From an uncultured Clostridia bacterium (GTDB taxonomy: Bacteria; Bacillota; Clostridia; TANB77; CAG-508), in contig CALXHG010000020.1 of assembly GCA_944388045.1 (NCBI GenBank), positions 1 through 32,000 of the forward strand: a stretch of 32,000 bases of DNA. The letters are read 5' to 3'. Below, one piece after another: positions 1-16,244 of the stretch (positions are counted from its first letter, which is position 1; every line of letters begins with the position of its first letter). The notes beneath the pieces are model-generated. The model was not told where the DNA came from. It ran no database searches and was given only the letters and a program-made list of their open reading frames with translations. The translations under genes and the position numbers were made by a program.

Positions 1-2
1 AG

Positions 3-623
3 GTAGATGTACCAATGGAAGATAAAGAAAGATATGAAATGTTTAATTTATTAAACAAACATAAAATGAGGTATAGGTATATTAGAATGAGGAAAATATA
101 TCAAACAAGTATACATTTAGCAAATCATAGTAGCAGTAGAAATATTAATATATATGACAAAGGGGTTGAAAGTGGTATTCCAGAGTTTGAGAATGTAGTT
201 CGTTTAGAATTACAAATTAAACATAGAGGAATCATAAGGTTATTAAATAAAGAAGAAAAACCAAGAGACATTTATTACTATTGGGGAAAAGAAGCAATGG
301 AGGAATTATTTTTTAAATATTTCGAGGGATTTCTTTATACAGGTACATATTATAAATTAGGACAAGCTATAAAAATAATTGAAAAATCTTCATATACAAG
401 AACATTAAAAAAAGGTTTAATATCTTTTGTTTCAATAGTAAATAAAAATGGTATGTTAGGAGCTGAAAGATTTTTTAGTTACAATACTATAAGAAAATAT
501 GAAAAATTATTGGATAATATAAATGTTAATCCTATAACTATTGAAGATGATGCTGAAATAAATGAGATGGAAAACTTATTAAAAAGAGCAAGAAGAATAG
601 CAGAAGAAAAATATTTCAAATAA
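3..623 (+). CDS. Rep_trans-family rolling-circle initiator / MOB_T-type relaxase, C-terminal part (5' end outside the window)
   Basis: The frame is open from nt 3 with no upstream stop. The block NINIYDKGVE...VVRLELQIKHRG resembles the YDK ... R-x-E-L signature I recall for pT181 RepC, Tn916 Orf20 and ICEBs1 NicK type proteins. The gene lies directly upstream of the xis-like and int genes. Confidence 0.55.
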   Translation, partial: VDVPMEDKERYEMFNLLNKHKMRYRYIRMRKIYQTSIHLANHSSSRNINIYDKGVESGIPEFENVVRLELQIKHRGIIRLLNKEEKPRDIYYYWGKEAMEELFFKYFEGFLYTGTYYKLGQAIKIIEKSSYTRTLKKGLISFVSIVNKNGMLGAERFFSYNTIRKYEKLLDNINVNPITIEDDAEINEMENLLKRARRIAEEKYFK

Positions 624-735
624 AAGAATTTAAAACTCACACAAAGGATTTTATATTAAGTTATTATAAAAAAGTCTTTTGTGGAGCAGTATTGAGTGAA
701 ATAGGAGCAGATAAAATTATTTATGGAGGTAAAAA

Positions 736-966
736 ATGAATTATAAAGAATATGTAGAAAAAAGAAATAAAGAAAATAAAATAACAATAAAAAAGGCAAG
801 TGAATTAATGGGAAAATCACAAAGTTTTGTAAGAATAGCAATGCAAAGAAATTTAATAAATATTGGGGTATGTTTAAAGAAAGAGGGGAGTAAAAGATAC
901 GATTATTATATAAATCCAAAACTATTTTATGAATATTTAGGGGAAAATAAAAAAAACATATTTTAA
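736..966 (+). CDS. Small HTH DNA-binding protein, excisionase-like (xis candidate)
   Basis: 76 aa with GGAGG 8 nt before the ATG. ITIKKASELMGKSQSFVRIAMQR looks like a helix-turn-helix. Its position immediately 5' of the integrase is typical for Xis. Confidence 0.45.
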   Translation: MNYKEYVEKRNKENKITIKKASELMGKSQSFVRIAMQRNLINIGVCLKKEGSKRYDYYINPKLFYEYLGENKKNIF

Positions 967-1034
967 ACCTTAGATTTATAAAAAAGTTTTCATATAATAC
1001 CAAATAATTAAAGAAAGGGGGGAATAAATATATC

Positions 1035-2075
1035 ATGAAGAGAGCCAATGGAATGGGAAGTGTATATAAAGCTGCAGGTAATAGAAGAAAACCTTATATT
1101 GTAAGGGTAACAAAAAAATTTGATGATAATGGAAAACAACTTTTTGAAATTTTAGGTGCATATGCCACACAAAAAGAAGCTGAAAATATGTTAAATGAAT
1201 ATACTAAAAATCCATATAATCTTAATAATCGTCATATTACCTTTAAGGGTGTTTTTGATTTATGGAAAAAAGAAAAATATCCTAAAATAAGAGAGAATTC
1301 TGCAAAGGCTTATGATTCATCTTTCAATAAATATTGTAAAGATTTATGGGATATAAGATTTATAGATCTTAGGTTAACTCATTATCAAACTTTAATTGAT
1401 AATAGTAATTGTAATTATCCAACTAAAAATAAGATAAGAAACCTTTTAAGCCAATTATCTAAATTTGCTCTAAATAATGACATTGTGCTTAAAGATTATA
1501 CAACAGCTATAGATATTGGAAAAAATACTAACACTCAAAAAAGAAAACCATTTACAAAAGAAGAAATACAAAAATTATGGGATAATGTTAACGAATTTAA
1601 ATGGGTTGATAGTATTTTAATTCTCTTATATAGTGGCACTAGAATTTGCGAATTATTAGATACTGAAATTAGTAATGTATTTTTAGATGAAAAATACCCA
1701 TTTTTTGTATCTGGAAATAAAACAGATGCAGGAAGAGAAAGAAAAATACCTATACATAATAGAATTTTACCTTTGGTTAAAAATTATTATGAAAAAAATA
1801 AGGATAAAAAATATCTTATTACAAATCATAATGGAGAAAAAATGGATTATTACAATTATAGAAGGAATAAGTGGGATGTTATAATGAAGGATTTTGGAAT
1901 GGATTATACCCCACATTGTACAAGGCATACATTTATATCATTATTAAAAAGTAAAAGGGCTGACCCATTAAATATAAAAAGAATTGTAGGTCATATTAGT
2001 AATGATGTGACTTCCGATGTTTATACCCATATTGATATAAAAGAACTATGGGAAACAGTAAATTTACTTGACTAG
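1035..2075 (+). CDS. int: Tyrosine recombinase / integrase (Tn916/ICE-type with N-terminal arm-binding domain)
   Basis: The N-terminus MGSVYK..RKPYIVRV..GAYATQKEAE looks like an AP2-like integrase DNA-binding domain. Catalytic signature: LLYSGTRICEL (Arg), HCTRHTFISLL (His-x-x-Arg), VGHISNDVTSDVYTH (His ... Tyr). A GGGGGG RBS precedes the ATG. Confidence 0.9.
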   Translation: MKRANGMGSVYKAAGNRRKPYIVRVTKKFDDNGKQLFEILGAYATQKEAENMLNEYTKNPYNLNNRHITFKGVFDLWKKEKYPKIRENSAKAYDSSFNKYCKDLWDIRFIDLRLTHYQTLIDNSNCNYPTKNKIRNLLSQLSKFALNNDIVLKDYTTAIDIGKNTNTQKRKPFTKEEIQKLWDNVNEFKWVDSILILLYSGTRICELLDTEISNVFLDEKYPFFVSGNKTDAGRERKIPIHNRILPLVKNYYEKNKDKKYLITNHNGEKMDYYNYRRNKWDVIMKDFGMDYTPHCTRHTFISLLKSKRADPLNIKRIVGHISNDVTSDVYTHIDIKELWETVNLLD

Positions 2076-2083
2076 GATTAATG

Positions 2084-2131
2084 ATGATAGATATATTTGT
2101 TATGAAAAATAATATATCTATCATTTTTTTC
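2084..2131 (+). terminator. Rho-independent terminator after int
   Basis: 14-bp perfect arms atgatagatatatt (2084-2097) and aatatatctatcat (2111-2124), followed by a T7 run. Confidence 0.6.
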
Positions 2132-2355
2132 TTTTTAATTTGAGAGATAAAATTTTTTCATTTTTGAGAAGAATATATATATATTAATAATTGATGAAAA
2201 TGTATCATATTATTTCATACTATATTTTATAAAAAAAATTAAAATATATTAAAAATTTTAGTTACTTTACTACCAAATAAATTAAGAGGTTTCGAAGAAA
2301 TACATAGCAAACATAATTTATAAAATATTTAATAAAAATAATAAAAAGAAGTTAA

Positions 2356-2381
2356 AGAATAGTATATTTATATACTATTCT
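2356..2381. repeat. Perfect 11-bp-arm palindrome agaatagtata-ttta-tatactattct
   Basis: Read directly from the sequence. It lies between int and the virB4-like remnant. Confidence 0.7.
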
Positions 2382-2418
2382 AACTAAAAATTAAATTAAA
2401 TAAAATTAAATTAAATTA

Positions 2419-2439
2419 GTAATATACAGGTAATATACA
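2419..2439 (+). repeat. Tandem direct repeat gtaatataca-g-gtaatataca
   Basis: Two exact 10-mers with an 11-bp period, preceded by (aaattaaatta)n-like repeats. This is a candidate recombinase arm or att-type site, or an iteron. Confidence 0.6.
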
Positions 2440-2462
2440 AAATGTTCTAAAAAGATTGATAA

Positions 2463-2813
2463 ATAAGTGTTATTCAAATTCATAAAGAAGATTTAACAAA
2501 TCATATTGAAAAAATAAAAAATAATCAAAAAAAAGAGAATAATAAAACAATAAATAACTATTCAAATAATTATATTGAATTTTTAAAGTTAAAGAATCAG
2601 AAAAATAAATCAGCTTCAAAAAATATATTTTTAATTATAAAAAATACAACAGAGAATAATGAAGAAAATATTTTTCAAGAATTAAATGAAAAATATTTTA
2701 AAATTAAAGATGCATTATTAAGATGTGGAAATTTATCTTATGAATGTGATAAAAAAGAAATAAAAAAAATATTATTTTCTTTTTTTAATACAAAAATATT
2801 TTTAGAAAAATAA
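2463..2813 (+). pseudogene. N-proximal fragment of the VirB4-like ATPase gene (no start codon, separated from the main ORF by a 1-nt frameshift)
   Basis: 116 sense codons end at TAA 2811-2813, with no ATG/GTG/TTG and stops at 2448, 2457 and 2460 just upstream. It reads ...NIFLIIKNT..IKDALLRCGNLSYECDKKEIKKILFSFFN. From memory this resembles the segment preceding the PS-x-I-x-F block of Orf16/PrgJ/TcpF-type proteins. Confidence 0.45.
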
Positions 2814-2817
2814 AGAG

Positions 2818-4965
2818 GTGAAAAAAATAAAAAATTATATAAATAAAAAAAATAATTTGAAAGAAAATAAAAATAAATTAATAGACAATAAAAAAGAAAT
2901 AAAAAACAAAAATAATTTAATAAAAAACAAAAATGAAAAAAGATATAATAAAAATAACATAAATAAATATGAAAAAGAAAAAACAAATAAAAATAATATT
3001 TTAATAAAAAATGAAAATGAAAAAGTAAAGATAGATAAAAAAAATAAAGTTATAGAAAATAAAAATAATTTTATTAAAAATAATAATAAAAAAATAAACA
3101 ACAAAAAAATATTATTTAAAAATAAAATATCAAATAAATATATTAAATTAAAACATAATTTAATATATTTAAAAAATAATTTAATAAAAATAAAAAAAAA
3201 TAATTTTGATGAAGGAGAATTTTTTGACAAAGATTTTTTTTCACCATCGTATATTAATTTCAATAATCCCAAATATATAGAAATAGATGATTATTTTTAT
3301 TCTGGATTAATTATAGTAAATTATTATAGAGAAAATAATGACCTAATTTTAAAAAGCTTATTAGAAACAAATATTAATATGAATATTTCTATGTATTATG
3401 AAAAATGTGATACTCAGAAAGTAATAAAAGAATTAACCTATAATATTGGAAATGTTGGATATGAGTTAAAAAAATTTAATGATAATAGACAAGATATAGA
3501 CATTGCTGAATCTACATATAATGATGCAAAATATATAAGAAAAGAAATTCAACTTAATAATGAAGAATTATATAATTTATACATTTATATAAATTTATTT
3601 AGTAATGATAAAAAAGAACTTTTTTATAATTTAGATAAGATTGAAGGAATACTACAAAGTAGGGGAATGCAAACGAAAAAATCAAATTTTAGACAAGAGC
3701 AATTATTTTTATCATGTTTACCATTATTAGAAAATAATAATGATTTAAAAACTGTTGGAAAAAGGAATATTTTAACTAATGGATTAGTTTCAACATATCC
3801 ATTTATGTCTTCTTCAATTGTTGATGATGAGGGAATCTATATCGGAAATAATATGTATAATAATTCGATGGTTTTAATAGATAGATATAATACTGATAAA
3901 TATAAAAATGCTAATATGTGTATTTTTGGGACAAGTGGAGCAGGTAAATCATTTTACACAAAAGCAATAATTTTGCGTAATGTTCTACTTGGTATTGAAC
4001 AGTACGTGATAGATCCAGAAAGAGAATATATAGATTTAGCTAGTAATTTAAATGGTACTATAATAAAACTTGGAACAACATCAGAAAATTTTATTAATGT
4101 TTTTGATATTAGAAAAGAAAGTATAGAAGAAAATGAACATGGTTATCTAGCAACTAAAATAGGTAAGTTAATTGGATTTTTTAACTTAATATTTGGAGAA
4201 TTGAATGAAGAGGAAAAAGCTGTATTAGAAGAAAAAATTATTGAAGTCTATAAATTAAAAAATATAACTTTTAATGATAATTCTTTATATAAAAATAATA
4301 AATTTAAAACAACAAAAGATATGCCAATATTAGAAGATTTTTATAATATATTAACAGAAGAAAAAAATAAGAAATTTAAAATTAAATTAATTCCTTTTAT
4401 TAAAGGCTCATTAAAATTTTTTAATAATCATACAAATATTGAATTAAATAACAAATTAATTGTTGCAGATGTTTATGAATTAGGAGAAGACAATATGAAA
4501 TATGGAATGTATTTATTTGTTGAACTATTTTGGGATAAAATAAAGATTAATAGAAATATAAAAAAGGCAATTTATTTAGACGAAATTTGGAGACTTATTG
4601 GAGTAACTTCAAATAAAGATGTTGCAAAATTTATTTACAAAATTTTTAAAACTATTAGAAAATATGGAGGTAGTAGTGTTGCTATTACTCAAGACATTTC
4701 TGATTTGTTTAGCTTAGACGAAGGAGCTTATGGAAAAAGTATTTTAAATAATTCTAGTATAAAAACATTTTTTTCTTTAGAGGAAGAAAATATAAAATTA
4801 CTATCTCAATATTCAAATATATCAGAAAAGGAAAAATTAGAGATAAAATCTTTACGAAGAGGAGAGTGTTTAACTTTTGTTGGTGATGAACATATTTTAA
4901 TTAATGTTGAAGTTAGTGATTATGAAAAACAATTAATTGAAAATAAGAATAAAATAAAAAATTAA
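2818..4965 (+). CDS. VirB4/TraE-like conjugative transfer ATPase (Gram-positive PrgJ/Orf16/TcpF type) with a 129-aa Lys/Asn-rich N-terminal tract
   Basis: Walker A is FGTSGAGKSFYTKA, Walker B is AIYLDEIWRL, and ITQDISD is present downstream. The FFSPSYINFNNPKYIEIDDYFYSGLIIVNY block is typical of the VirB4 N-domain. GTG start. Confidence 0.85.
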   Translation: MKKIKNYINKKNNLKENKNKLIDNKKEIKNKNNLIKNKNEKRYNKNNINKYEKEKTNKNNILIKNENEKVKIDKKNKVIENKNNFIKNNNKKINNKKILFKNKISNKYIKLKHNLIYLKNNLIKIKKNNFDEGEFFDKDFFSPSYINFNNPKYIEIDDYFYSGLIIVNYYRENNDLILKSLLETNINMNISMYYEKCDTQKVIKELTYNIGNVGYELKKFNDNRQDIDIAESTYNDAKYIRKEIQLNNEELYNLYIYINLFSNDKKELFYNLDKIEGILQSRGMQTKKSNFRQEQLFLSCLPLLENNNDLKTVGKRNILTNGLVSTYPFMSSSIVDDEGIYIGNNMYNNSMVLIDRYNTDKYKNANMCIFGTSGAGKSFYTKAIILRNVLLGIEQYVIDPEREYIDLASNLNGTIIKLGTTSENFINVFDIRKESIEENEHGYLATKIGKLIGFFNLIFGELNEEEKAVLEEKIIEVYKLKNITFNDNSLYKNNKFKTTKDMPILEDFYNILTEEKNKKFKIKLIPFIKGSLKFFNNHTNIELNNKLIVADVYELGEDNMKYGMYLFVELFWDKIKINRNIKKAIYLDEIWRLIGVTSNKDVAKFIYKIFKTIRKYGGSSVAITQDISDLFSLDEGAYGKSILNNSSIKTFFSLEEENIKLLSQYSNISEKEKLEIKSLRRGECLTFVGDEHILINVEVSDYEKQLIENKNKIKN

Positions 4966-5140
4966 ATAATAAAAATAAAAAATAAATTAAATAATAAAAA
5001 ATTAAAAAAATAAATAATAATTAAATAATAAAAATAAAAAATAAATTAATAATAATTAAATAATAAAAAAATAAATTAAATAGTAATTAAATAATAAAAA
5101 AATAACAAATAAAAGATAACAAAAATAATATTAAAAATAT
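4962..5140 (+). repeat. A-rich, nearly G/C-free minisatellite-like tract
   Basis: There is an exact 28-nt direct repeat ttaaataataaaaataaaaaataaatta at 4962-4989 and 5021-5048. An exact 21-nt repeat aattaaataataaaaaaataa occurs at 5054-5074 and 5085-5105. Stops occur in all frames. Confidence 0.85.
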
Positions 5141-5214
5141 ATATTTAAATATTTAATAAAAAATATTTTATTGATTTAATTAATTTTAAGAAAGGAGATT
5201 TTATTAATAAAAAA

Positions 5215-5940
5215 ATGGAGTTAGAAAATGAAATAGAAAATGATAAAAAAATTGAAAATAATGTAAATTTAGAAAAAGAACAAAAAAATTTTTTTGAAAC
5301 TTCACTAGGGAAAGTAATAGATACAGGAATAGACATTGGATTAAAAGCAATTTTGCCAGATTTAATTGAAGACCAAGTTATAAATATAAAAGATGCATTA
5401 ATAGATAATGGAATAAAAGAAGGAATAAAAACAGCAGTTAATTCTATAATTGATTTTGGAAAAAGTATTAAAGGAATTTTTACTGGAAAATTCGAAAATA
5501 TAGAACAAGTAGAAACAGCAATAGGAAATGGAGGAATAATAGATACAACATCAGACTTAATTGACAAGGCTATAGATAAAGTTTATCAAAAAGGTATAAT
5601 AGGAACTCAAATAAAAAACTTAATAATTAAAGGAAAAGATTTGATTATGAGTAATGTTGCTAGTAATTTAAAAGATGAAATAAATTTACAAGAAAAATCT
5701 TTTTATAATATTGAAAAATATATTAGTAATTTTAATAATTTTTACAATAGTAAAAATTTTGATGGTATGACTAGAGAGTATAATAAAATAGAAAAAGAAT
5801 TAAAAAAATTAATTCCTTTGGAAAATGTATTAAGAGAAACAAATAAAATAAATATTTTATATAATCTAATAAAAAATAATGGACATAATTTTAATTTAAG
5901 TGAAAGTGAGATGGATTTTATAAAGAAAATGAATATATAA
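5215..5940 (+). CDS. Hypothetical protein (helical, Ile/Asp/Gly/Lys-rich), downstream of the virB4-like gene
   Basis: 241-aa ORF on the same strand as the virB4-like gene. I recognise no catalytic motif. The start is uncertain because GGAGA lies about 16 nt before the ATG. Confidence 0.5.
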   Translation: MELENEIENDKKIENNVNLEKEQKNFFETSLGKVIDTGIDIGLKAILPDLIEDQVINIKDALIDNGIKEGIKTAVNSIIDFGKSIKGIFTGKFENIEQVETAIGNGGIIDTTSDLIDKAIDKVYQKGIIGTQIKNLIIKGKDLIMSNVASNLKDEINLQEKSFYNIEKYISNFNNFYNSKNFDGMTREYNKIEKELKKLIPLENVLRETNKINILYNLIKNNGHNFNLSESEMDFIKKMNI

Positions 5941-5946
5941 AAAATA

Positions 5947-5978
5947 GAATAAAGGCTTTTTCCTTTATTCCATTTTTT
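5947..5978. terminator. Hairpin terminator between convergent genes
   Basis: Arms gaataaagg and cctttattc with a 6-nt loop, followed by a T-run. It overlaps the stop codon of the minus-strand XRE gene. Confidence 0.5.
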
Positions 5979-6324
5979 CTCTATCATTAGTGTACTTTTT
6001 ACAAAAATCATTAGAATACATTACAATGTGATAAATGAAATCTGTAGTTTCTTCTGAATTCACTGTTAAAATATTATTAATTTTTTGTATTGTTTGGTTA
6101 TTTGTTCCTTTTCCAAATAATAAATAATCAGCAGATATTCCTGTATATCTTACAACTTTTCTTAATGTTTTTACACTAAGAGCTCTTTCTCCTCTTTCAA
6201 TTTGCCCTAAGAAAGAATCTGTAATGTCAATTTTTTCAGAAAATTCTTCTCTGTTCATTTTCATGTTTTCTCTAATTCCACGAAGTCTTTCTCCTGTGGA
6301 TATATCATCTTGATTATAATGCAT
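5965..6324 (-). CDS. XRE-family helix-turn-helix transcriptional regulator
   Basis: GERLRGIRENMKMNREEFSEKIDITDSFLGQIERGERALSVKTLRKV is a classic HTH_3 pattern. I chose the start at MHYNQ (6324) because GAGGAG sits 8 nt upstream; the ORF track start at 6354 lacks an RBS. Confidence 0.85.
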   Translation of the reverse strand: MHYNQDDISTGERLRGIRENMKMNREEFSEKIDITDSFLGQIERGERALSVKTLRKVVRYTGISADYLLFGKGTNNQTIQKINNILTVNSEETTDFIYHIVMYSNDFCKKYTNDREKME

Positions 6325-6502
6325 ACCTTTATCTCCTCTAAATTTTTTTAACATTATATAGCGAATTTTGTCAACATATAATAAGCAAAAAGCAAATATT
6401 TAACGTATGCATATAAAATGATATAAAAATATAAATCAGATATTAAAAAAGAATATACTTAAAACGAATAAGAATCAAAAATAAAGCTAAAAATATATTG
6501 AG

Positions 6503-6727
6503 GTGATAAATTTGTTTGATGAAGGAAAATTAGATGAAATTTTTAGAAATAATCAAGAAACTGTTGAAGAAAAAATTGCTAAACAATATCATTTAGAATT
6601 AAAAAAGATAAATGATGTTAATTTTGAAGAAAGAGAAAATATAAAACAGGGAATTATAGCGGAATTATATTATAAAGAAGGTTTTAAAGATGGAGTAGAT
6701 TATGCTTTAAAGTATTTGATAAAATAG
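6503..6727 (+). CDS. Small hypothetical protein, divergent from the XRE regulator
   Basis: 74-codon ORF. A more likely start is TTG 6512, preceded by GAGGTG with a 6-nt spacer. No recognisable domain. Confidence 0.4.
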   Translation: MINLFDEGKLDEIFRNNQETVEEKIAKQYHLELKKINDVNFEERENIKQGIIAELYYKEGFKDGVDYALKYLIK

Positions 6728-6803
6728 TTTAAAATATAAAAATTTTAATACTTAAAAAAGGAAATTGTTTCATTAAAAATCTGAAAATAATTCTTTAAAA
6801 TTC

Positions 6804-6832
6804 TTGCAAATTAAAAGTTATTATAATATAAT
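6804..6832 (+). promoter_or_regulatory. Sigma-A-type promoter for gyrA
   Basis: TTGCAA (6804-6809), 17-nt spacer, TATAAT (6827-6832). Confidence 0.5.
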
Positions 6833-6866
6833 ACTAATGCAATACAAAAAGAAAGAGGTAGAAACA

Positions 6867-9314
6867 ATGGAAGAAAGACATGATGGAAATATTATAAAAA
6901 GAGATATTGAAGAAGAAATGAGAACAGCATATATTGATTATGCAATGAGTGTAATAGTTTCTAGGGCTTTACCAGATGTAAGAGATGGTTTAAAGCCTGT
7001 ACATAGAAGAATTTTATATGCAATGCATGAAGATGGAATAACATCAGATAAACCATATAGGAAATGTGCTAATACCGTAGGTTCTGTATTAGGAAGATAT
7101 CATCCACATGGTGATGCTTCTGTATATGATGCGATGGTTAGAATGGCACAAGACTTTTCTATGAGATATATGTTAATAGATGGGCATGGTAATTTTGGAT
7201 CAATAGATGGTGATGGTGCTGCGGCAATGAGGTACACAGAAGCTAGAATGTCAAAAATAGCTGAACAAATGTTAGTTGATATTGAGAAAAATACTGTTGA
7301 TTTTATGCCAAACTATGATGATAGATTACAAGAACCAAAAGTTTTACCAACCAAAATACCAACTTTATTAATAAATGGATCATCAGGAATAGCCGTAGGA
7401 ATGGCAACAAATATTCCACCGCATAATTTAAGAGAAGTTATAGATGGTTTAGTAAAAATAATTGATGATGATAATGTTACAGATGAAGATTTAATGAAAA
7501 TTATTAAAGGTCCAGATTTCCCTACAGAAGGATTAATATTAGGTAGAGAAGGAATTAAAGAAGCATATACAACAGGTAAAGGAAAGATAACTATGAGAGC
7601 TGAAGCAGAAATAGAGGAAACAAGTGGTAATAAGCAAAGAATAATAGTGTCTTCTTTACCTTATCAGGTTAATAAAGCACGTTTAATAGAGAATATAGCT
7701 CATTTATGTAAGGAAAAAAGAATCGAAGGGATTTCTGAATTAAGAGATGAATCAGATAGAAATGATAGAGTAAGAATTGTTATAGAATTAAAAAGAGATG
7801 CTAATGCTAAAATTGTATTAAATCAATTGTATAAAAATACACAAATGCAAGATACATTTGGAGTAATAATGTTAGCACTAGTTGATAATGAACCAAAAAT
7901 TTTAACATTAAGACAGTGTCTAGATTGTTTTATTGCTCATAGAAAAGATGTAATTTTACGTAGAACTCAATTTGATTTAGATAAGGCACTTGCTAGAGCA
8001 CATATTTTAGAGGGATTAAGAATAGCAATAGATAATATAGATGAAGTTATAAATATAATACGTAATTCTTATGATGACGCAAAAGAAAAATTAATGAAAA
8101 GATTTGGTTTAACAGATGTACAAGCACAAGCTATTCTAGATATGAGATTAAAAACATTATCAGGATTGCAAAGAGAAAAAATAGAAGAAGAATACAAACA
8201 ATTAATGGAATTAATTGCACATTTAAGAGCAATTTTAGCTAGTGATAGATTAGTTTTTGATATTATCAAAGAAGAATTACTTGAAATTAGAGAAAAATTT
8301 GGAGATGATAGAAAAACAAAAATTGTTTCTGCACAAGGAGATTTTGAAGAAGAAGATTTAGTTAAAGAGGAACAATCTGTTATAACATTAACACATTTTG
8401 GATATATTAAAAGAATGCCAATAGATACATATAGAAGTCAAAAACGTGGAGGAAAAGGAATTGCAGGTGCAACAACTAGGGAAGAAGACTTTGTTAAACA
8501 AATATTTACGGCTTCAACACATGATATAATTTTATTCTTTACTAATAGGGGAAAATTATATAAACTTAAAGGATATGAAATTCCAGAAGCGGGAAGGACT
8601 GCAAAGGGTACGGCTATTGTTAATTTATTGAGTTTAGATTCAGGAGAAAAAGTTTCTGCTGTAATACCAATACAAAATTTTGCTGAAGGAAAATATTTAT
8701 TAATGGCAACAAAACAAGGGCTAATAAAGAAAACAGCTTTATCAGAATATAATTCATCAAGAACTACAGGACTATTGGGAATAACATTAAAAGAAAATGA
8801 TGAACTTATTGGTGTACGTTTAACTGATGGAGAGGATAATGTTGTATTAGTTACAAGAAATGGTTTATGTATAACATTTGATGAAAAAGAAGTTAGACCA
8901 ATAGGAAGAGTTTCACAAGGTGTTATAGGTATAAGATTAGATGATGATGATGAAGTTATAGGAATGGAATCAATTATTGCAGGAGGTAAAGCGACACTAT
9001 TAGCTATAACAGAAAACGGATTTGGAAAAAGAACAGAATTAGATGAGTATAGAGTTCAACTTAGAGGAGGAAAGGGTGTTATTACATATAAAATAACATC
9101 TAAAACAGGGAAATTAGTTGGAGTAAGAATAGCTACTGATGATGAAGATGTAATGCTTATAACAGATAAGGGTACGATAATCAGATTAAAAGTTAAGGAT
9201 ATAAGTGTTTTAGGTCGTTCTACACAAGGTGTAACTTTAATGAGAACAACAGATGGTGGAAAAGTTGTAAGTATAGAAACACTAAAACCAGATATGACAG
9301 ATTTAGATGCATAA
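6867..9314 (+). CDS. gyrA: DNA gyrase subunit A
   Basis: The N-terminal signature is YIDYAMSVIVSRALPDVRDGLKPVHRRILYAM...HPHGD..VYDAMVRMAQDF. AAMRYTEARM carries the catalytic Tyr. A GyrA-box-like QKRGGKG is followed by C-terminal beta-pinwheel repeats. I chose the start at MEERHDG (AGAGG RBS) rather than the ORF track start 6804. Confidence 0.97.
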   Translation: MEERHDGNIIKRDIEEEMRTAYIDYAMSVIVSRALPDVRDGLKPVHRRILYAMHEDGITSDKPYRKCANTVGSVLGRYHPHGDASVYDAMVRMAQDFSMRYMLIDGHGNFGSIDGDGAAAMRYTEARMSKIAEQMLVDIEKNTVDFMPNYDDRLQEPKVLPTKIPTLLINGSSGIAVGMATNIPPHNLREVIDGLVKIIDDDNVTDEDLMKIIKGPDFPTEGLILGREGIKEAYTTGKGKITMRAEAEIEETSGNKQRIIVSSLPYQVNKARLIENIAHLCKEKRIEGISELRDESDRNDRVRIVIELKRDANAKIVLNQLYKNTQMQDTFGVIMLALVDNEPKILTLRQCLDCFIAHRKDVILRRTQFDLDKALARAHILEGLRIAIDNIDEVINIIRNSYDDAKEKLMKRFGLTDVQAQAILDMRLKTLSGLQREKIEEEYKQLMELIAHLRAILASDRLVFDIIKEELLEIREKFGDDRKTKIVSAQGDFEEEDLVKEEQSVITLTHFGYIKRMPIDTYRSQKRGGKGIAGATTREEDFVKQIFTASTHDIILFFTNRGKLYKLKGYEIPEAGRTAKGTAIVNLLSLDSGEKVSAVIPIQNFAEGKYLLMATKQGLIKKTALSEYNSSRTTGLLGITLKENDELIGVRLTDGEDNVVLVTRNGLCITFDEKEVRPIGRVSQGVIGIRLDDDDEVIGMESIIAGGKATLLAITENGFGKRTELDEYRVQLRGGKGVITYKITSKTGKLVGVRIATDDEDVMLITDKGTIIRLKVKDISVLGRSTQGVTLMRTTDGGKVVSIETLKPDMTDLDA

Positions 9315-9373
9315 TTGATTATAAAATAATTAAATATTAAGTACTTAAATTTATTAAAAAATAATAAAAAAAT

Positions 9374-9422
9374 AAAAATACTATATATAGATTATATTAA
9401 ACAATCTATATATAGTATTTTT
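9374..9422. terminator. Bidirectional A/T-only hairpin terminator between convergent gyrA and dnaI-like genes
   Basis: Arms of about 19-20 bp, aaaaatactatatatagatt and aatctatatatagtattttt, around a 9-nt loop. Confidence 0.6.
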
Positions 9423-10430
9423 TTAACACATGCTTCTTTGTTTTATACGTAAATCATCGCCAAAGAAATAATAAATATCATAAAACCCAGCAATACGAGA
9501 ACCAATTCTTTCTTCATAATTATTAAATATATTATCAATATTTAAATTTGTTGAAATAATAGTTTTTGTGGATTTATTATTTAAATTTAATAATCTAGTA
9601 TTTAATATTGTAAATAATTCACTTAATTTCATACTATTTAAACATTCTGTACCTAAATCATCTATAATTAATAAATCTGTTTCAAGTACATTTTTATAGA
9701 AAGTATCTTTTGAAATATCTTTATATTTATTAAATTTATTATCAATTATAGTTTCTAATAAAACTGGAGCCGTTTGATAAAATACAGTTTTACCTCTTTT
9801 TATAAGCTCATTTGCTATACAATTAGACATAAATGTTTTTCCTAATCCAGTATTACCAATAAATAAAAGATTGCGAGTTTCTAAATTATCAAAATTGTTT
9901 ATAAAATCGATACATTTATCTTTAATATTTATTATATTTTCTCTTGGTGAAATTTGAAAATTTTCAGATATATTGTTAGAAAATAGATTTTCATTAAATT
10001 TTTGAAAATTTTCTTTTTTTAAATTTGAAATATTAGATTTATTATAAGAAATATCTAATAGTTTTTGTTTAAGACAAGAACACATGACTGTTGCAGAAGT
10101 TCCTGATTTTATATAACCAGTGTCTTTACAAATATTACATTCGTAGGTTGGTTGTAAAAATTCTTTTGAAATATGATTATTTTTTATTATTTCATTTTTT
10201 TCATTTCTTAGTTGATCTAGCTTTAAATGTAAATTTTGTAAAGAAGACATGTTCCCAAATAAAATTTTTTTAGTTTCGTTTATTGCAACAGAATTTAGTT
10301 CTTCTTCAATTTCCTTAAGTCTAGGGTGTTTTTTATATAATTCATTTTTTCTGTGTTCAAAATCTAATTCTGCTCTACGTTTCTTCTGTTCATAATCACT
10401 TAAAAGTGATGTTAGTATATCATTATACAT
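9423..10430 (-). CDS. dnaI: DnaI/DnaC-type replicative helicase loader (AAA+ ATPase with N-terminal zinc-binding module)
   Basis: Cys cluster CNICKDTGYI...MCSC, Walker A GNTGLGKTF, Walker B IIDDLGTE. It overlaps the upstream DnaD-domain gene by 8 nt. Confidence 0.75.
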   Translation of the reverse strand: MYNDILTSLLSDYEQKKRRAELDFEHRKNELYKKHPRLKEIEEELNSVAINETKKILFGNMSSLQNLHLKLDQLRNEKNEIIKNNHISKEFLQPTYECNICKDTGYIKSGTSATVMCSCLKQKLLDISYNKSNISNLKKENFQKFNENLFSNNISENFQISPRENIINIKDKCIDFINNFDNLETRNLLFIGNTGLGKTFMSNCIANELIKRGKTVFYQTAPVLLETIIDNKFNKYKDISKDTFYKNVLETDLLIIDDLGTECLNSMKLSELFTILNTRLLNLNNKSTKTIISTNLNIDNIFNNYEERIGSRIAGFYDIYYFFGDDLRIKQRSMC

Positions 10431-11499
10431 TTATATCTCCTTCCGTATTTAAGTTTTTTATATTAGATGCTGAAATATTTGGAGCCGTACTATTTTGCAT
10501 TGAATTTGAAACTATAGATTCATTAGTTTTGGGTTGCATACTAGAATTTGCATATAAAAATGATAAATTACTATATTTTCTTTGTTCAAAAGAAGCTTTA
10601 GCAACTTTTTTCTCTAATTGCTTAGTATCTTTACGTTGTTTTTCTCTTTGTTCAATAAAAGCATATACTTCTTCAGGAGTTTTTAAACCTCTTTCGTGCC
10701 AATTTGTTATTATATTATTAAAGTATTCAAAAGTAGGGTTTGACTTGTAAACACTACGCTTTAAAGCTATTTCGATTATATTTAAATTATAGCCATAATC
10801 TAAAAGCCATTTTTCTATATAAGCTTCTTCATATTGTGTTAAAGTTTGTTTTCCAAGTTTTTTTGCAATGGTTCTCTTAATTTTTACAATTGCATCTTGT
10901 TTTTGATAATATGAATCTAAATCTTCCCAAGTTTGAATTTTATTGCTTCCCCAAGCTTCTGCTACTGTTTGAACATATTTCATATTTAAAGCTGAACGTC
11001 TAAAACAGTAATCAAAAAGAGAAATTAATACTTGATCATCAAAATTATATTTTGTAATCCATAAATCTATATTATTATACCAAGAAGGTCCCATAATTCC
11101 GGAAAAATATGTATTATTAATATGTTCTATAACTTTGGCTCTAGCTTTATTTTTTGATATATCTTCAATTTTTTCTGGAGATAATGTTAAATTTGGCTTA
11201 TATAATTTATGAAGTGTTTGCTCTTGTAAATTTACTAAAATATAACCATTTTCTTTTTTTATGATAAGACCATTTTCTTCTAAATAAGAAAAAGAATCAT
11301 TTATTTCTTTTAATGGTAAAGCTAACTTTTTTGATAAATCGTTTAATTTTATATCTTTTTCATATTTTGATAAAAAAACTATATATAAATAAACTTTTAC
11401 ACAGTTTGCTGGCATTTGAGACAAATATTCTGCAAAAAAAATGTCTGGAATAGTTGTTTCAGAAAATAATAATGGTGTGTCTGATTGTGCTAATTTCAA
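10423..11499 (-). CDS. DnaD-domain replication initiation protein (B. subtilis DnaB/DnaD type)
   Basis: An N-terminal winged-helix-like region (YLYIVFLSK...) is followed by DnaD/DnaB_2-like repeats (YVQTVAEAWGSNKI; IIEIALKRSV..FEYFNNIITNWHERG). It is paired with a dnaI-like gene, as in Firmicutes. TTG start with an AAGGAGG RBS. Confidence 0.7.
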   Translation of the reverse strand: MKLAQSDTPLLFSETTIPDIFFAEYLSQMPANCVKVYLYIVFLSKYEKDIKLNDLSKKLALPLKEINDSFSYLEENGLIIKKENGYILVNLQEQTLHKLYKPNLTLSPEKIEDISKNKARAKVIEHINNTYFSGIMGPSWYNNIDLWITKYNFDDQVLISLFDYCFRRSALNMKYVQTVAEAWGSNKIQTWEDLDSYYQKQDAIVKIKRTIAKKLGKQTLTQYEEAYIEKWLLDYGYNLNIIEIALKRSVYKSNPTFEYFNNIITNWHERGLKTPEEVYAFIEQREKQRKDTKQLEKKVAKASFEQRKYSNLSFLYANSSMQPKTNESIVSNSMQNSTAPNISASNIKNLNTEGDINV

Positions 11500-11539
11500 T
11501 TTCGAAACCTCCTTTTGATATATAAAAAAGTCTAGTAAA

Positions 11540-11567
11540 ATTATATCATTTATAAGGAGAAAATCAA
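11540..11567 (-). promoter_or_regulatory. Sigma-A-type promoter for the DnaD-domain/dnaI operon
   Basis: On the minus strand: TTGATT (11567-11562), 16-nt spacer, TATAAT (11545-11540). Confidence 0.5.
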
Positions 11568-11575
11568 GTAAAAAC

Positions 11576-11860
11576 TCAAAACTTTTTATACAAATATAAC
11601 TTTGGCTTAAATAGATATTTTACTAAATAAGTTATTACTAAAAACAGAGGCTCTCCATAAAAACCAAATATACTAAAAAGAGTCATAGGTAAGCAAAAAG
11701 ATATTATAAAAAATATTTTTATATTCCAATCAGTAAAGAGTAGGTGAAAAGTAAAAAATATTACTAAATACCATATAATATTAAGAATAATTGTTGAATA
11801 ATCTAAAATACCAAATACTTTATTTTTAAAATTATAATTTTGTGGAATAATAAATTTCAT
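11576..11860 (-). CDS. VirB3/PrgI-like small membrane protein of a Gram-positive T4SS
   Basis: 94 aa with two TM helices. The N-terminus IIPQNYNFKNKVFGILDYSTII and the C-terminus GEPLFLVITYLVKYLFKPKLYLYKK resemble the PrgI-family pattern I recall. AGGAGG RBS, 20 nt after the VirB6-like gene. Confidence 0.55.
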   Translation of the reverse strand: MKFIIPQNYNFKNKVFGILDYSTIILNIIWYLVIFFTFHLLFTDWNIKIFFIISFCLPMTLFSIFGFYGEPLFLVITYLVKYLFKPKLYLYKKF

Positions 11861-11880
11861 AAAAATTAACCTCCTTTTTT

Positions 11881-12753
11881 TTATTTTTTTAAAAAGTTAT
11901 TCACATTTTGTGAAATAGTTGTGGAAATCCCACCTAAAAATTCACGTACAAACGAATTTGCTTTTATTAAAACATAAATTGCACCAATATAAATAAATTT
12001 TGTTAATAAATTACTAGAAGAATAGTCCATAGAAAATAGAATAAGTAAAACTAAAGATACAATAATTTGAATAAACAAAAGTGAAAATAAATTTCTTATC
12101 CAACTTTTAAAAAACCAAGATGTATTTTGCAATATTAAAGATAAAAAAGCAAAAGGTGTAAGTAATATAAAAATTTTTACCATCACATATCTAAAGGAAT
12201 AGGAGAAAACTAAACCTAATAAAGAGGTAGAAAGAGATGCTTTTATAAGTCCATCTAATGAGAAAATATCAAGAGATGATTCATTTATAAAAATAGAACC
12301 ATTTATTTCTAAGATTAATTCAGAAAAACAGATATTTTTATTAAAAAGTTCTTCTCCTATTCCTCTTATGGCTAAAGTTATATTAGATGTAAAATTAAGT
12401 ATTTCTGTTATAAAAAAATAGGAAAAATTAATAAATAAGCCAAAAATAATAATTTTAAAGAAAAATTGAGACGGTGATTCTATTTTATTAAATGTAAAGT
12501 GTGAAAATAAATATTTTATACTATAATATAAAGTAACACCAAATAATAAAGAATTACAAATCAATATAACACCACTTTGAGAATTTATACCTAATATTTT
12601 TTCAAAAAAAGAATCAGAAATGATATTTGAGTTAATAAAAGTGATATCATCTAAAATATTATATAAATTATTGTCAATTGAAGAAAATAAATTCTGTAAA
12701 ATAGTATTAATTGTTTCAATAATTATTGTAGTGATATTTTGACTATTTTCCAT
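11881..12753 (-). CDS. Polytopic membrane protein, VirB6/TrbL-like T4SS channel candidate
   Basis: 290 aa with multiple predicted TM segments. It sits between the VirB2-like and VirB3-like genes, 8 nt after the upstream stop, with a GGAGG RBS. Confidence 0.45.
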   Translation of the reverse strand: MENSQNITTIIIETINTILQNLFSSIDNNLYNILDDITFINSNIISDSFFEKILGINSQSGVILICNSLLFGVTLYYSIKYLFSHFTFNKIESPSQFFFKIIIFGLFINFSYFFITEILNFTSNITLAIRGIGEELFNKNICFSELILEINGSIFINESSLDIFSLDGLIKASLSTSLLGLVFSYSFRYVMVKIFILLTPFAFLSLILQNTSWFFKSWIRNLFSLLFIQIIVSLVLLILFSMDYSSSNLLTKFIYIGAIYVLIKANSFVREFLGGISTTISQNVNNFLKK

Positions 12754-12761
12754 TTAACCTC

Positions 12762-13082
12762 CTAGCCAATTAATGATTGAATTGCAGAAATAACTAAATC
12801 AGCAGCTAAAATAAAAGCATAAGAAAATAAAGAACCAGTTATAAGTTTTTTTCCAATTCTTATTTTTTCTTCATCACCAAAACTAAATTTTTTCATAAGA
12901 GCACCAGAACAGACTGCAACAGCAGCTGCTGGTGTAGATATTTTTATTATCCATTCTTTGATTTCTTCAAATGCATCACTTAATGTGCTAACTAATTTTG
13001 GAGTAGCTGCATATACAATTTGATTTGATAAAAATAAGATAATAAAAAAAATTAAAAATATATTAATTAAAAATTTAAACAT
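12762..13082 (-). CDS. Small secreted/membrane protein, VirB2/TrbC-like pilin candidate
   Basis: 106 aa with a signal-peptide-like N-terminus ending VYA-A and two hydrophobic helices (TPAAAVAVCSGALM; GSLFSYAFILAADLVISAI). AGGAGG RBS. Confidence 0.4.
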   Translation of the reverse strand: MFKFLINIFLIFFIILFLSNQIVYAATPKLVSTLSDAFEEIKEWIIKISTPAAAVAVCSGALMKKFSFGDEEKIRIGKKLITGSLFSYAFILAADLVISAIQSLIG

Positions 13083-13084
13083 AA

Positions 13085-13400
13085 AACCTCCTTGAAAATT
13101 TAATAATTAAAATAAATAATAAAATAAATAAATAAAAAATAATAAATAAAAAATAAACAATAAACAATAAAATAAACAATAAAATAAATAATTAAAAAAT
13201 AAAAATTAATAAACAAAAAATAAATAATTTAAAAAATAAAAATTAATAAATAAAAAAATAAATAAATAATAAAATAAATAAAAATTAATAAACAAAAAAT
13301 AATTAAAAAAATAAATAATTAAAAAAATAAAAAGTAATAAATAGAAAATAATAAAAATAAATAAAAAATTAAAATAGAAAAAATTAATAATAAAAGATTA
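13085..13400 (+). repeat. A-rich (plus strand), nearly G/C-free imperfect tandem-repeat tract filling the 320-nt gap between the T4CP and VirB2-like genes
   Basis: Units of about 36 bp: taaataatt(t)aaaaaataaaaattaataaa at 13185-13213 and 13221-13250. An exact 22-mer aaaattaataaacaaaaaataa occurs at 13202-13223 and 13281-13302. The 12-mer caataaaataaa is tandem near 13167-13190. Confidence 0.85.
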
Positions 13401-13402
13401 AA

Positions 13403-15124
13403 TCAATTTTTGAAATATGGAAACATTTGTAATTTAGATGGTTTTATTATATTAGTTCCATCTGATAAAAAAGCTAGGCATGTAAAGGTTTCTAAATATT
13501 GAGTAAAGAAGTTAGTATCAAAGATAAAATCGTTTTGTACATAAGTATTATAACTTTCTGTTATACTAGAATTTTTAGAATTTAATGAATTAGTAATATA
13601 ATTAAAATTAGTTTCTTTTGCATTTTCAGAAATAGTAGATGAAATTTTTTGTTTATCTTCTTTACCTAATTGTTTTTGTGCTTCTTCTATTGTAAAAATA
13701 TCATCTGTTCTAAACCAAAGTTTATTTATTAAATTTTGAGTAATTACTTTTACTGCTGTTTCGTCTTTTAATGTGTTTTTTAATGATGAATAACTTTGCG
13801 TGGAAACAATATTTATACATTTGGCTTCTCTACTTAAAGAGAAGAAGTCAGCATCACTTTTTGTAATATATTCTGAATATTCATCACAAATAAATGCAGA
13901 TGGTTTAATTTTATTATGTGATAAATTGTACATTATTTCAGATTGAAAATCTAATTTTAAATATGCTGCGATTATTTTAGAAAGATTTTTATATTCAGCA
14001 ATATTCATATTTAAAACTAATATTTTTCCTTGTTCTAACATTGAAGAAAAACCTTTAAAATTTAATGCTTCTTTTGAAGAACAAAATATTTTAGAAATTT
14101 TGTAATCTGAAACAAATATATTTGTTATACGAGTAATTTCTGATTTTAAAATTGCTAAAGTTCTTGTATCTAAATTATTAAATTCTTTTTCAAAAAATTC
14201 TAATGCTGTATTTAAATTATAAACTTGTTGATAATTAAATTTGGATTGACAAAATAAATCTTTTAGCTTTTGAATTTTTGATTTATAATATTCTGGTTCA
14301 GTAATGAGTTTTTGTAATTCTATAAATGTAACATAATTGTTATTATATAATCTACAAAGTTTAATAGCTTCGGCTAAAACTTGTTCAGCTTTATCTAGCC
14401 AAAAAGATTCAGTATTATTTTCTGAAAATAGTAATAATATTGTTTTTAATCTATTAGCAAGAACAGAAGCTTTTAGATTAGGCTTATGTAATGGATTATA
14501 TTTTATATTTGAGTTTAATCCTAATTCAATGATATCATTTTCCAAATTATATTTATCTGCATATATTTTTACCTGTTTAAAATAATTACCTTTTACATCT
14601 AAAATTAAAATAGGAATTTTATTTTTTTTATTTAGAGAATTGAATTTAATTAATTGTTCTGTAAAAGGATACATAGCTGAACTTGTTTTTCCTGTTCCTA
14701 TTGTTCCAGTAATTAAAAAATTTTGATATAATCCTGATTCAGGTAAAAATACATTTTTATTTAAATTTATATTTTTTCCAATTAATAATTCTATTTTTGA
14801 ATTATTTTTTTTAGTATAATAATTATTACTATCTTTTCTAATAATTATATTATTATTTTTCTTATATTTATTAAAATATAAAATTTTTAAAATATTTAAA
14901 AATTCTACAATTTTATTTTCTAACAAATTAAAAATAATAAAATTTGACAAAATATTAAAAAACCAAAAACTTGTTTTTAAAAATTTCCATGCAAAAAAAT
15001 TTTTTTGACAAATATCAAAAGGCTGTAAGCTTAAGGTTACAATAAGTTCATTAGCATTAAATAGTGGATAGAAAAAATGATAGATTGTAAAACTAGACAT
15101 AAAAGTATATATTAATAATCTCAA
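13403..15124 (-). CDS. Type IV coupling protein (VirD4/TraG-like T4CP)
   Basis: N-terminal TM region, Walker A ITGTIGTGKTSS, ILDVKGNY (the D-x-KGE-like motif), YNPLH, Walker B AFICDEYSEY and a Q-rich motif NIVSTQSYSSL. The TTG start is uncertain because the RBS GAGGTGA lies 18 nt upstream. Confidence 0.75.
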   Translation of the reverse strand: MRLLIYTFMSSFTIYHFFYPLFNANELIVTLSLQPFDICQKNFFAWKFLKTSFWFFNILSNFIIFNLLENKIVEFLNILKILYFNKYKKNNNIIIRKDSNNYYTKKNNSKIELLIGKNINLNKNVFLPESGLYQNFLITGTIGTGKTSSAMYPFTEQLIKFNSLNKKNKIPILILDVKGNYFKQVKIYADKYNLENDIIELGLNSNIKYNPLHKPNLKASVLANRLKTILLLFSENNTESFWLDKAEQVLAEAIKLCRLYNNNYVTFIELQKLITEPEYYKSKIQKLKDLFCQSKFNYQQVYNLNTALEFFEKEFNNLDTRTLAILKSEITRITNIFVSDYKISKIFCSSKEALNFKGFSSMLEQGKILVLNMNIAEYKNLSKIIAAYLKLDFQSEIMYNLSHNKIKPSAFICDEYSEYITKSDADFFSLSREAKCINIVSTQSYSSLKNTLKDETAVKVITQNLINKLWFRTDDIFTIEEAQKQLGKEDKQKISSTISENAKETNFNYITNSLNSKNSSITESYNTYVQNDFIFDTNFFTQYLETFTCLAFLSDGTNIIKPSKLQMFPYFKN

Positions 15125-15149: not shown

Positions 15150-15420
15150 ACTCTAGAAAATAATTAAATTAAATATAATAAAAATAAATAAAATAGAAAA
15201 ATAAATAATAAAAAAATAGAGTAAAAAACAATAAAAAATTAATAAATAACAAATAAATAATAAAAAATTAAAAATGAATAAAAAATAAAAATAAATAAAA
15301 ATAAAAAATAAATAAATAAAAATGAAAAATAATAAATATTAAAAATAATAAATAAATAATAAATATTAAAAATATAGAAAATATAATATAAATAATAATA
15401 ATAATTATTATTATTTCTTG
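15150..15420 (+). repeat. A-rich, nearly G/C-free low-complexity tract upstream of the T4CP gene, ending in an (AAT)n/(ATT)n palindrome
   Basis: Same sequence family as 4962-5140 and 13085-13400. aataaatattaaaaata is repeated at about 15331 and 15358. The palindrome aataataataataa|ttattattatt is centred at 15404/15405. Confidence 0.8.
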
Positions 15421-16040: not shown

Positions 16041-16116
16041 GGGCTATTAGCTCAGGTGGTAGAGCACTTGACTTTTAATCAAGTTGTCCCGCGTTCGAGT
16101 CGCGGATAGCTCACCA
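16041..16116 (+). tRNA. tRNA-Lys (anticodon UUU)
   Basis: Cloverleaf folded by hand: acceptor gggctat/atagctc, anticodon stem cttga/tcaag with loop cTTTTaa, T-arm ccgcg-ttcgagt-cgcgg, encoded CCA. Confidence 0.9.
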
Positions 16117-16167
16117 AAGATTAATTAAGAATTCTAATGTGGAAATAATTAGAATTCTATAATTTAT

Positions 16168-16242: not shown

Positions 16243-16244
16243 TT

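Follow-up and report, generated by a model that had tools for sequence, protein, structure and literature searches.

The locus described here raises the question of why the genes of what is probably one secretion machine should lie in two blocks on opposite strands, with essential replication genes between them. The DNA is a stretch of 32,000 nucleotides (nt) from an uncultured Clostridia bacterium of the GTDB lineage TANB77; CAG-508 (assembly GCA_944388045.1, contig CALXHG010000020.1, positions 1 to 32,000; hereafter the window). It carries the VirB4 ATPase gene of a type IV secretion system (T4SS) on the plus strand and, beyond gyrA, dnaI and a DnaD-domain gene (dnaD), the genes of VirB3-, VirB6- and VirB2-like proteins (virB3, virB6, virB2) and that of a type IV coupling protein (T4CP) on the minus strand. 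The initial annotation of the window explained this layout by an inversion: with one of its breakpoints falling in an integrated conjugative element, it would have moved gyrA, dnaI and dnaD between the halves of a now non-transferable element. Our analysis favours a different answer: the locus is quite probably a chromosomally fixed, vertically inherited and domesticated split T4SS of TANB77/CAG-508, whose small gene for the N-terminal domain of VirB4 (virB4N) has been cut in this genome by an unrelated mobile element.

Gene order around gyrA was compared across species by tblastn of the window proteins. The sample was anchored on GyrA and took one genome per species with 10-kb flanks; it comprised 80 loci (loci are cited below by L numbers) with GyrA 81-98% identical, all from metagenome-assembled genomes of uncultured gut Clostridia, including Clostridium sp. 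CAG:273 (L057), CAG:567, CAG:571 and CAG:575. CAG-273 is placed by GTDB in Clostridia; TANB77; CAG-508 (PMC13508870). On the left the order was found to be gyrB(+), virB4N(+), virB4(+), a variable gap, orf241(+) and gyrA(+), and on the right dnaI(-), dnaD(-), virB3(-), virB6(-), virB2(-), T4CP(-) and DUF1858(+). Of the 36 loci whose right flank reaches 9 kb or more, 35 had all the genes from dnaI to T4CP, the sole exception being cut by a contig end. On the other side, orf241, virB4, virB4N and gyrB were present in 35 of the 41 loci whose left flank extends for 7.5 kb or more, the others having larger inserts or gyrB out of range; orf241 itself was found in 70 of the 80 species loci, at 26-83% identity. 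Within the species, 23 contigs share an identical DnaI protein and the two-block layout was seen in 10 of the 10 listed. This order alone occurred in a second, independent sample, 47 metagenome contigs no shorter than 9 kb that were retrieved through their VirB4 (67-86% identical). Evidently, the layout is old and fixed, being common to every sampled species with enough flank. The T4SS set is indeed split exactly between virB3 and virB4, as the initial annotation had it, but with the same arrangement in so many species, same-species contigs and metagenome contigs the split is neither recent nor confined to a strain. The left block lies within an origin-proximal cluster, since a RemA-like gene, recF and dnaN are located 5' of gyrB (in L063 the upstream order is dnaN, recF, RemA-like gene, gyrB). 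The plus-strand GC skew of the window is positive, which agrees with this location.

Relatives with the same divergent layout were thus found many times over, and selection on their genes was taken as the evidence that the systems function. Ratios of dN/dS (Nei-Gojobori method, 11 species pairs) were 0.00-0.15 for virB4, 0.03-0.27 for virB6, 0.09-0.23 for virB3, 0.00-0.20 for virB2, 0.10-0.22 for T4CP and 0.00-0.42 for virB4N, compared with 0.00-0.24 for dnaI, 0.01-0.13 for dnaD, and 0.13-0.21 and 0.21-0.38 for the neighbouring SDR and VanW genes; dS reached 0.4-1.0 in many pairs, so that these values are approximate, and closer pairs (dS 0.05-0.4) agree with them. The fastest-evolving member of the set was orf241 (0.03-0.38). 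About 90-95% of species keep the T4SS open reading frames (ORFs) intact, and VirB6 is intact in every species seen. Identity to the window protein followed GyrA identity with rho 0.64 for VirB6, 0.61 for T4CP and 0.65 for DnaD. The T4SS genes are therefore under purifying selection throughout the clade, like dnaD and dnaI; given intact ORFs, low dN/dS and divergence that tracks GyrA as that of DnaD does, we take the T4SS set to be vertically inherited and functional, and not the dead remnant that had been proposed.

Nor does the set behave as an integrated conjugative element: neither a relaxase nor an integrase of its own was found in the window or in the 10-kb flanks of the loci, and there is no presence/absence variation. 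No flanking attachment (att) repeats were found around the T4SS genes, which occupy the same position in all loci with enough flank. The only integrase of the window belongs to a separate element, which is absent from L004, L011 and the 80 species representatives that keep the T4SS genes.

Window ORFs of at least 60 amino acids (aa) were scanned with Pfam and NCBIfam profiles, and the T4SS calls of the initial annotation came out unequally. The VirB4 and T4CP assignments are firm. The ATPase ORF matched the NCBIfam models for CD1110-family VirB4 (2e-83, 281 bits, under the 325-bit cutoff), the Mbov_0397 family (5e-75) and TraC-F-type (2e-40), and T4CP matched TrwB_AAD_bind (5.9e-8, 32.4 bits, above the Pfam cutoff of 20.5), TraG-D_C (2e-6, 28.2 bits, above the cutoff of 22) and the NCBIfam model SXT_TraD (8e-8). 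The assignments of VirB2, VirB3 and VirB6 are weak but consistent, as judged from profile similarity. The VirB2-like protein scored 26.3 bits against the Pfam family T4SS_pilin, 0.3 bits short of the 26.6 cutoff, and gave a weak hhalign match to a 'fimbrial protein' of Vescimonas (E 1.2e-3). As single sequences the VirB3-like and VirB6-like window proteins had no family match. Among VirB3 orthologues PrgI was the top recurrent family, with weak matches in 6 of 34, and their profile aligned by hhalign, over 90 columns, with the N-terminal PrgI part of a PrgI::VirB4 fusion protein from a Vescimonas plasmid (E 9e-5, probability 59%). Among VirB6 orthologues the top recurrent family was TrbL/VirB6 (12 of 37, best E 4.8e-4, none at the curated cutoff). 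Profile searches of PDB gave no match for VirB6 or VirB2, and hhalign found no similarity between VirB6 and a 309-aa neighbour protein in Vescimonas. For orf241 no Pfam, NCBIfam or PDB family was found, a Pfam search of 35 orthologues yielding only scattered chance matches. The gyrA, dnaI and DnaD-domain calls were confirmed by the profile scans, and the annotated ORF positions, the gaps (8 nt between virB2 and virB6, 20 nt between virB6 and virB3, 76 nt between virB3 and the DnaD-domain gene) and the GGAGG sites 5' of virB2, virB6, virB3 and dnaD all proved correct in a check of ORFs and spacing.

What, then, is wrong with the 5' end of virB4? It had been described as the degenerate start of a single gene, with a breakpoint of the inversion close by, at about 2.3 kb. 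In the window, positions 2472-2813 hold no ORF of at least 50 aa with a start in the frame of the coding remnant found there. In L004, an allele of the same locus with an empty site, an intact 182-aa virB4N lies directly 5' of a 715-aa ATPase ORF, and gyrB follows about 1.2 kb further upstream, as it also does in the empty-site allele L011. The L004 virB4N protein is TraC-like by Pfam, aligns with positions 2-169 of the NCBIfam CD1110 VirB4 model (4e-11) and also matches the TrsD/TraD family of NCBIfam (9e-7). Of about 40 species, only one lacks this separation of virB4N and virB4 into two ORFs. VirB4 is therefore natively encoded by two cistrons, a TrsD-like N-domain gene (virB4N) and an ATPase gene: the split is near-universal among the species, the two ORFs do not keep a constant frame offset, and a ribosome-binding site (RBS) follows the virB4N stop. 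A programmed frameshift joining virB4N to virB4 was considered and rejected, as the offset is 0, +1 or +2 in different species and the RBS stands after the virB4N stop. In this species the ATPase ORF begins with a K/N-rich low-complexity region of about 140 aa, which is much shorter in relatives.

Start codons in this part of the locus appear to be unusual. In many loci an ATA or ATT, 6-9 nt past a GGAGG-like site, looks like the start of the ATPase cistron; window positions 2814-2830 read AGAGGTG-AAAAAA-ATA, where the GTG at 2818, the listed start, shares nucleotides with the RBS and no ATG is nearby. The virB4N of L011 apparently starts at ATT. Such non-canonical starts may be common in the clade and would mislead ORF callers.

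Comparison with the empty-site allele located the cause of the abnormal 5' end. From 2472 onward the window is 99.7% identical to L004, and before 2472 the two are unrelated; since identity begins at that point, the first ~2.48 kb of the window is the right end of a mobile element. This element, of the integrase/primase type and at least 11.4 kb long, has inserted site-specifically at about codon 69 of virB4N in this genome, and the 5' end is abnormal because this insertion removed the virB4N start and the first ~69 codons. The initial annotation was thus right that the end is abnormal; as an inversion breakpoint it fails, being the junction of a mobile element with gyrB upstream in uninserted strains. 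With virB4N lacking its start and ~69 codons, the T4SS of this strain is probably switched off by the element, unless the latter excises.

The insertion site falls within the most conserved virB4N motif of the clade (IQILIQSKKEDL). Empty sites were found in L004, L005 and L011, and the empty-site allele occurs within the same species; the element was present in none of the 80 species-representative loci. Window positions 1-2480 are 100% identical to L091, and over about 11.46 kb (L091-L096, 1-11460) the element is 99.9-100% identical between hosts, whose adjacent gyrA regions are only about 80% identical or cannot be aligned and whose GyrA proteins are about 80% identical. Near-identity across species with such divergent flanks indicates, from these comparisons, a very recent spread of the element between species. 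In the public collection, 655 indexed blocks contain the identical 346-aa integrase, and among the six places listed it was found beside a virB4N remnant, at the same site, in at least five species. The cargo comprises a DUF927-type primase/helicase, an ADP-ribosylglycohydrolase, fragments of a second integrase and of a DnaB-like helicase, and several unknowns. In the retrieved part of the element no relaxase or capsid genes were recognised, and no internal repeat of the junction sequence was seen in the 11.4 kb covered. Its 309-aa and 446-aa proteins had no informative match in Pfam, PHROG, NCBIfam or PDB, and the viral contig collection held no relatives of the element.

How the split arose was approached from mobile relatives. 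There VirB3 is encoded beside VirB4, and the closest homologue on a plasmid is a fusion of PrgI with VirB4, as the initial annotation would lead one to expect. It is plausible, on this comparison, that an ancient rearrangement in the clade ancestor split a once-contiguous operon. The virB3/virB4 split would then date to that ancestor and could have come about by one or two inversions or by transposition; for example, a contiguous minus-strand operon may have inserted beyond dnaD, two nested inversions then giving the order of today. The products of both blocks would assemble in trans into one membrane machine, with a VirB6 channel, VirB3, the VirB4N/VirB4 ATPase, T4CP as the substrate receptor and the VirB2-like protein as a surface component. 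For its relaxase or substrate the machine would depend on other sources, for instance mobilizable elements or another chromosomal locus.

Several points weigh against the reading of a functional domesticated system. No relative with a contiguous operon was recovered as an outgroup (the search with VirB6 gave only close relatives among the 120 homologues listed out of 4002, and a metagenome scan with a VirB4 profile returned in-clade loci only), and consequently the ancestral rearrangement is argued solely from the canonical order in mobile relatives. The identity of VirB3 and VirB6 is weak, depending as it does on sub-threshold profile matches, gene order and topology. In Pfam and NCBIfam searches of the window ORFs and of the called genes of the flanking loci, no relaxase was found in the window or within 10 kb on either side of any locus, nor was a VirB1/PrgK/TcpG-like hydrolase or a VirB8/TcpC/PrgL-like protein; the machine may be incomplete, or the missing parts may be encoded elsewhere in the genome. 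Frameshifts were found in virB4 of L013, L042, L051 and L024, and in T4CP or virB2 of L024, L049 and L056: the system is dispensable. The virB4 ORF is frameshifted in 3 of 5 element-carrying species compared with 4 of 42 without the element (Fisher p = 0.019, a small sample), an excess consistent with the insertion inactivating the system. The element length, too, is a lower bound, its left end lying more than 10 kb beyond the window start.

Given a domesticated T4SS, its likeliest job would be the export or mobilization of DNA or nucleoprotein, a function we assign only tentatively; what favours it is that the system has kept a T4CP with a TrwB-type domain and that no relaxase lies nearby. 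A DNA-uptake system resembling ComB, or a T4SS serving purely protein secretion, adhesion or contact, comes next and seems unlikely rather than improbable. Such a role would suit a chromosomal, vertically inherited system with a VirB2-like pilin and no relaxase nearby, and the hosts are uncultured and have reduced genomes, which suggests dependence on partners (PMC11680825). Against it stands the conservation of a T4CP with the TrwB-type all-alpha domain and TraG-D_C, and no effector candidates were identified. ComB-type uptake systems are not known to have a coupling protein. A system of this kind would depart from our main reading in its substrate alone.

A more far-reaching version of the domesticated system can be proposed, which we hold to be rather improbable: that the T4SS is a core-genome organelle of TANB77, a clade-wide machine for DNA exchange or interaction with partners, exploited and switched by hitcher elements and entrenched near oriC. 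Under this proposal the near-identical element would spread between species through this very T4SS, its integration into and excision from virB4N at IQILIQSKKEDL would act as a reversible on/off switch, and the position between gyrB, gyrA, dnaD and dnaI by oriC would tie dosage and expression to replication. That a mobile element targets a T4SS gene suggests a natural control point or switch.

It is quite unlikely that the locus is instead a functionless, slowly decaying fossil of an ancient conjugative element, persisting wedged between essential genes. The absence of relaxase, hydrolase and VirB8-like partners from the neighbourhood and the frameshifted virB4, T4CP or virB2 of some species would fit such a fossil, as would the knock-out of virB4N by the mobile element in many genomes without obvious harm. 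However, dN/dS is mostly 0.03-0.27 in the six T4SS genes over divergences that would erase neutral genes, the great majority of species keep ORFs with intact Walker motifs and conserved RBSs, and reduced genomes quickly delete useless DNA.

The recent inversion that would have left a dead, non-transferable element fares worse and must be regarded as highly improbable. Inverting the segment from about 2.3 to 11.57 kb would indeed restore, geometrically, the canonical operon with the virB3-virB4 order of mobile relatives, and the virB4 5' end is really truncated in the window. Against this are the layout shared by 80 species and more than 70 other contigs, the purifying selection, and the lack of a linked relaxase or an element-owned integrase in the searches made. 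The proposed breakpoints share no inverted repeats other than low-complexity AT-rich matches. The left 'breakpoint' is the mobile-element junction, beyond which gyrB of empty-site strains is oriented as gyrA, and the supposed state before inversion would make gyrB and gyrA convergent, which is not the ancestral bacterial arrangement. An assembly artefact or a programmed invertible segment, for which the unusual gene order alone would speak, can practically be dismissed, as independent assemblies from many studies and assemblers agree on a single orientation throughout and the breakpoint repeats are low-complexity AT-rich sequences of 70-79% identity.

The features of the window are listed in Table 1. 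Its GC content is about 22%, and the standard code reads well. A scan for promoters and terminators was uninformative in such AT-rich DNA, with 148 promoter-like sites against 155 expected; between virB3 and dnaD there is a TG-extended -10 site and no terminator.

Table 1. Positions of the predicted features of the window, with the evidence for each
Feature	Position	Strand	Remarks
Mobile element, right end	1..2491	+	Integrase/primase type, element at least 11.4 kb; host junction ~2472-2491
C-terminal 202 codons of 309-aa ORF (element)	15-623	+	
Xis-like ORF, 76 aa (element)	736-966	+	
Tyrosine integrase, 346 aa (element)	1035-2075	+	Phage_integrase 2.6e-16; phrog_1 integrase 1e-47
virB4N 3' remnant, codons ~70-182	2472..2813	+	No start, other frame than ATPase ORF, cut by mobile element
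VirB4 ATPase cistron	2818..4965	+	P-loop_TraG 6e-17, AAA_10; Walker A GTSGAGKS and Walker B YLDE intact
orf241, conserved	5215..5940	+	No transmembrane (TM) segment; directly 5' of gyrA across the clade
XRE-type helix-turn-helix regulator	5965..6354	-	HTH_3 1.8e-12; only in a subset of clade loci
Small ORF, 74 aa, subclade-specific	6503..6727	+	No family match; only in closest species
gyrA (chromosomal DNA gyrase A subunit)	6867..9314	+	DNA_topoisoIV 2e-169, DNA_gyraseA_C 1e-76
dnaI/dnaC-like helicase loader, intact	9423..10430	-	NCBIfam PRK06835 329 bits (cutoff 215); IstB_IS21, Bac_DnaA
DnaD-domain replication protein	10423..11499	-	DnaB_2 2.6e-26, two stretches; TIGR01446 DnaD_dom
VirB3/PrgI-like	11576..11860	-	Two TM segments; orthologue PrgI matches and hhalign
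VirB6/TrbL-like polytopic membrane protein	11881..12753	-	At least 4 TM segments; orthologue TrbL/VirB6 matches
VirB2-like T4SS pilin	12762..13082	-	T4SS_pilin 8e-6; signal peptide and two hydrophobic segments
T4CP (VirD4/TraD-like)	13403..15124	-	Walker A GTIGTGKT; likely start ATG at 15100 (gene callers agree)

Some variation was seen inside and around the two blocks. Between virB4 and orf241 most of the more distant relatives carry a ParA/MinD/CbiA-like ATPase of 300-440 aa (for example L063:7666-8994, L095:13713-15011, L093:13552-14736 and L092:14074-14967), which is absent here; the closest species, including this one, have the XRE regulator and the 74-aa ORF between orf241 and gyrA instead. 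An insertion of 2-6 kb between orf241 or the XRE gene and gyrA was found in L015, L028, L029, L060 and L073, which suggests a second insertion hot spot. In L068, L074, L075 and probably L086 the stretch between dnaI and VanW, both included, has turned round as a whole with respect to gyrA; this is another block than that of the proposed inversion, and in these species T4CP-virB2-virB6-virB3-dnaD-dnaI are still colinear.

Just past the T4CP block of the window there are a tRNA-Lys(UUU)/Glu/Thr cluster (16041-16321) and a tRNA-Lys(CUU) gene (19567-19642), and the neighbouring DUF1858, SDR, CBM and VanW genes are syntenic throughout the clade. Degenerate low-complexity tracts (AAATAAAAAT-like), expanded in this species, were found at 2821-3200, 4925-5141, 13047-13402 and 15157-15404, one of them inside the virB4 ORF and the other three between genes in the T4SS neighbourhood. 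On the plus strand every tract is A-rich, regardless of gene orientation.

The dnaI gene, intact in the window, has an extra C in its Walker A region (GGT TTA C GGT AAG) in at least 18 related species, or about 25 by an ORF-fragment criterion (for example L027:12507-13506(-), L062:12616-13615(-), L071 and L025). In frame 0 the codons give L-R(CGG)-stop, whereas the GNTGL-GKTF of the window gene is recovered if the C is skipped; relative to the window protein the part downstream is 75-81% identical and the part upstream 52-56%. The codon CGG was not used once among 43,973 codons in conserved genes of the frameshift species. From its sequence, dnaI thus looks like a candidate for programmed +1 frameshifting at an unused CGG codon. 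No report of a +1 frameshift in dnaI was found in the literature searched, and it may be a new instance of programmed frameshifting, here affecting a replication gene.

In the literature searched we found no description of this locus, nor of any clade-fixed Gram-positive T4SS that is interleaved with gyrB/gyrA/dnaI/dnaD, split between virB3 and virB4 and targeted by a promiscuous integrative element. A conserved 'pilin' cluster of TANB77, a lineage linked to immunotherapy response, is a Tad-type pilus and a different locus (PMC11680825). A T4SS inherited vertically across an uncultured, reduced-genome clade of the human and animal gut points to a function in lifestyle, candidates being DNA exchange, the mobilization of hitchers and cell-cell interaction. 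The locus further suggests that the genes of a canonical operon can remain out of order over very long periods and still function. Automated finders of integrative and conjugative elements (ICEs), as well as human readers, would take such loci for degraded elements.

Gram-positive T4SSs are nearly always found on plasmids or ICEs. Those of pSK41/pGO1 (TrsD-TrsE) and pIP501 (TraD-TraE) resemble the present one in that VirB4 is divided into a small N-domain protein and an ATPase, and they too encode a T4CP along with a membrane protein of the VirB6 type, which is putative in our locus. They are carried on plasmids as uninterrupted operons that include a relaxase, a VirB1-type hydrolase and a VirB8-like protein, whereas this locus is chromosomal, fixed in the clade and split around gyrA-dnaI-dnaD, and those partners were not found nearby. 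The best family match of VirB4 is to the CD1110-family VirB4/CD1115-family VirD4 modules of Clostridia, of which pMM35_02 of Vescimonas fastidiosa is the closest sequenced example. Its VirB4 is 34% identical, and it also has a VirB2-like small protein and PrgI. The Vescimonas module, however, is contiguous, with PrgI fused to VirB4, a C39 peptidase and the T4CP downstream, while in the present locus VirB3 lies on the opposite strand from VirB4, about 6.6 kb of replication genes away, and T4CP leads the other block.

Mobile elements that interrupt host genes include the skin element in sigK, the phage in Listeria comK and SpyCIM1 in mutL. The element in virB4N is similar to these in having a tyrosine integrase, an Xis-like protein, a fixed site in coding sequence and an empty-site allele; unlike them, it targets a T4SS gene and is near-identical across species.

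Domesticated chromosomal T4SSs include ComB of Helicobacter pylori (DNA uptake), the genetic island of Neisseria gonorrhoeae (DNA secretion), VirB of Bartonella and Brucella (effectors), the 'type IVC' islands of Streptococcus and the conserved T4SS genes of Saccharibacteria, and relaxase-less T4SSs have reportedly been discussed as co-opted systems in one study. The likeness to the present locus is that conjugation-derived machinery has been kept for the use of the host without the functions for self-transfer. Those examples are mostly Gram-negative, contiguous and often variable between strains, whereas the T4SS described here belongs to Clostridia, is clade-wide and origin-proximal, and is interleaved with replication genes.

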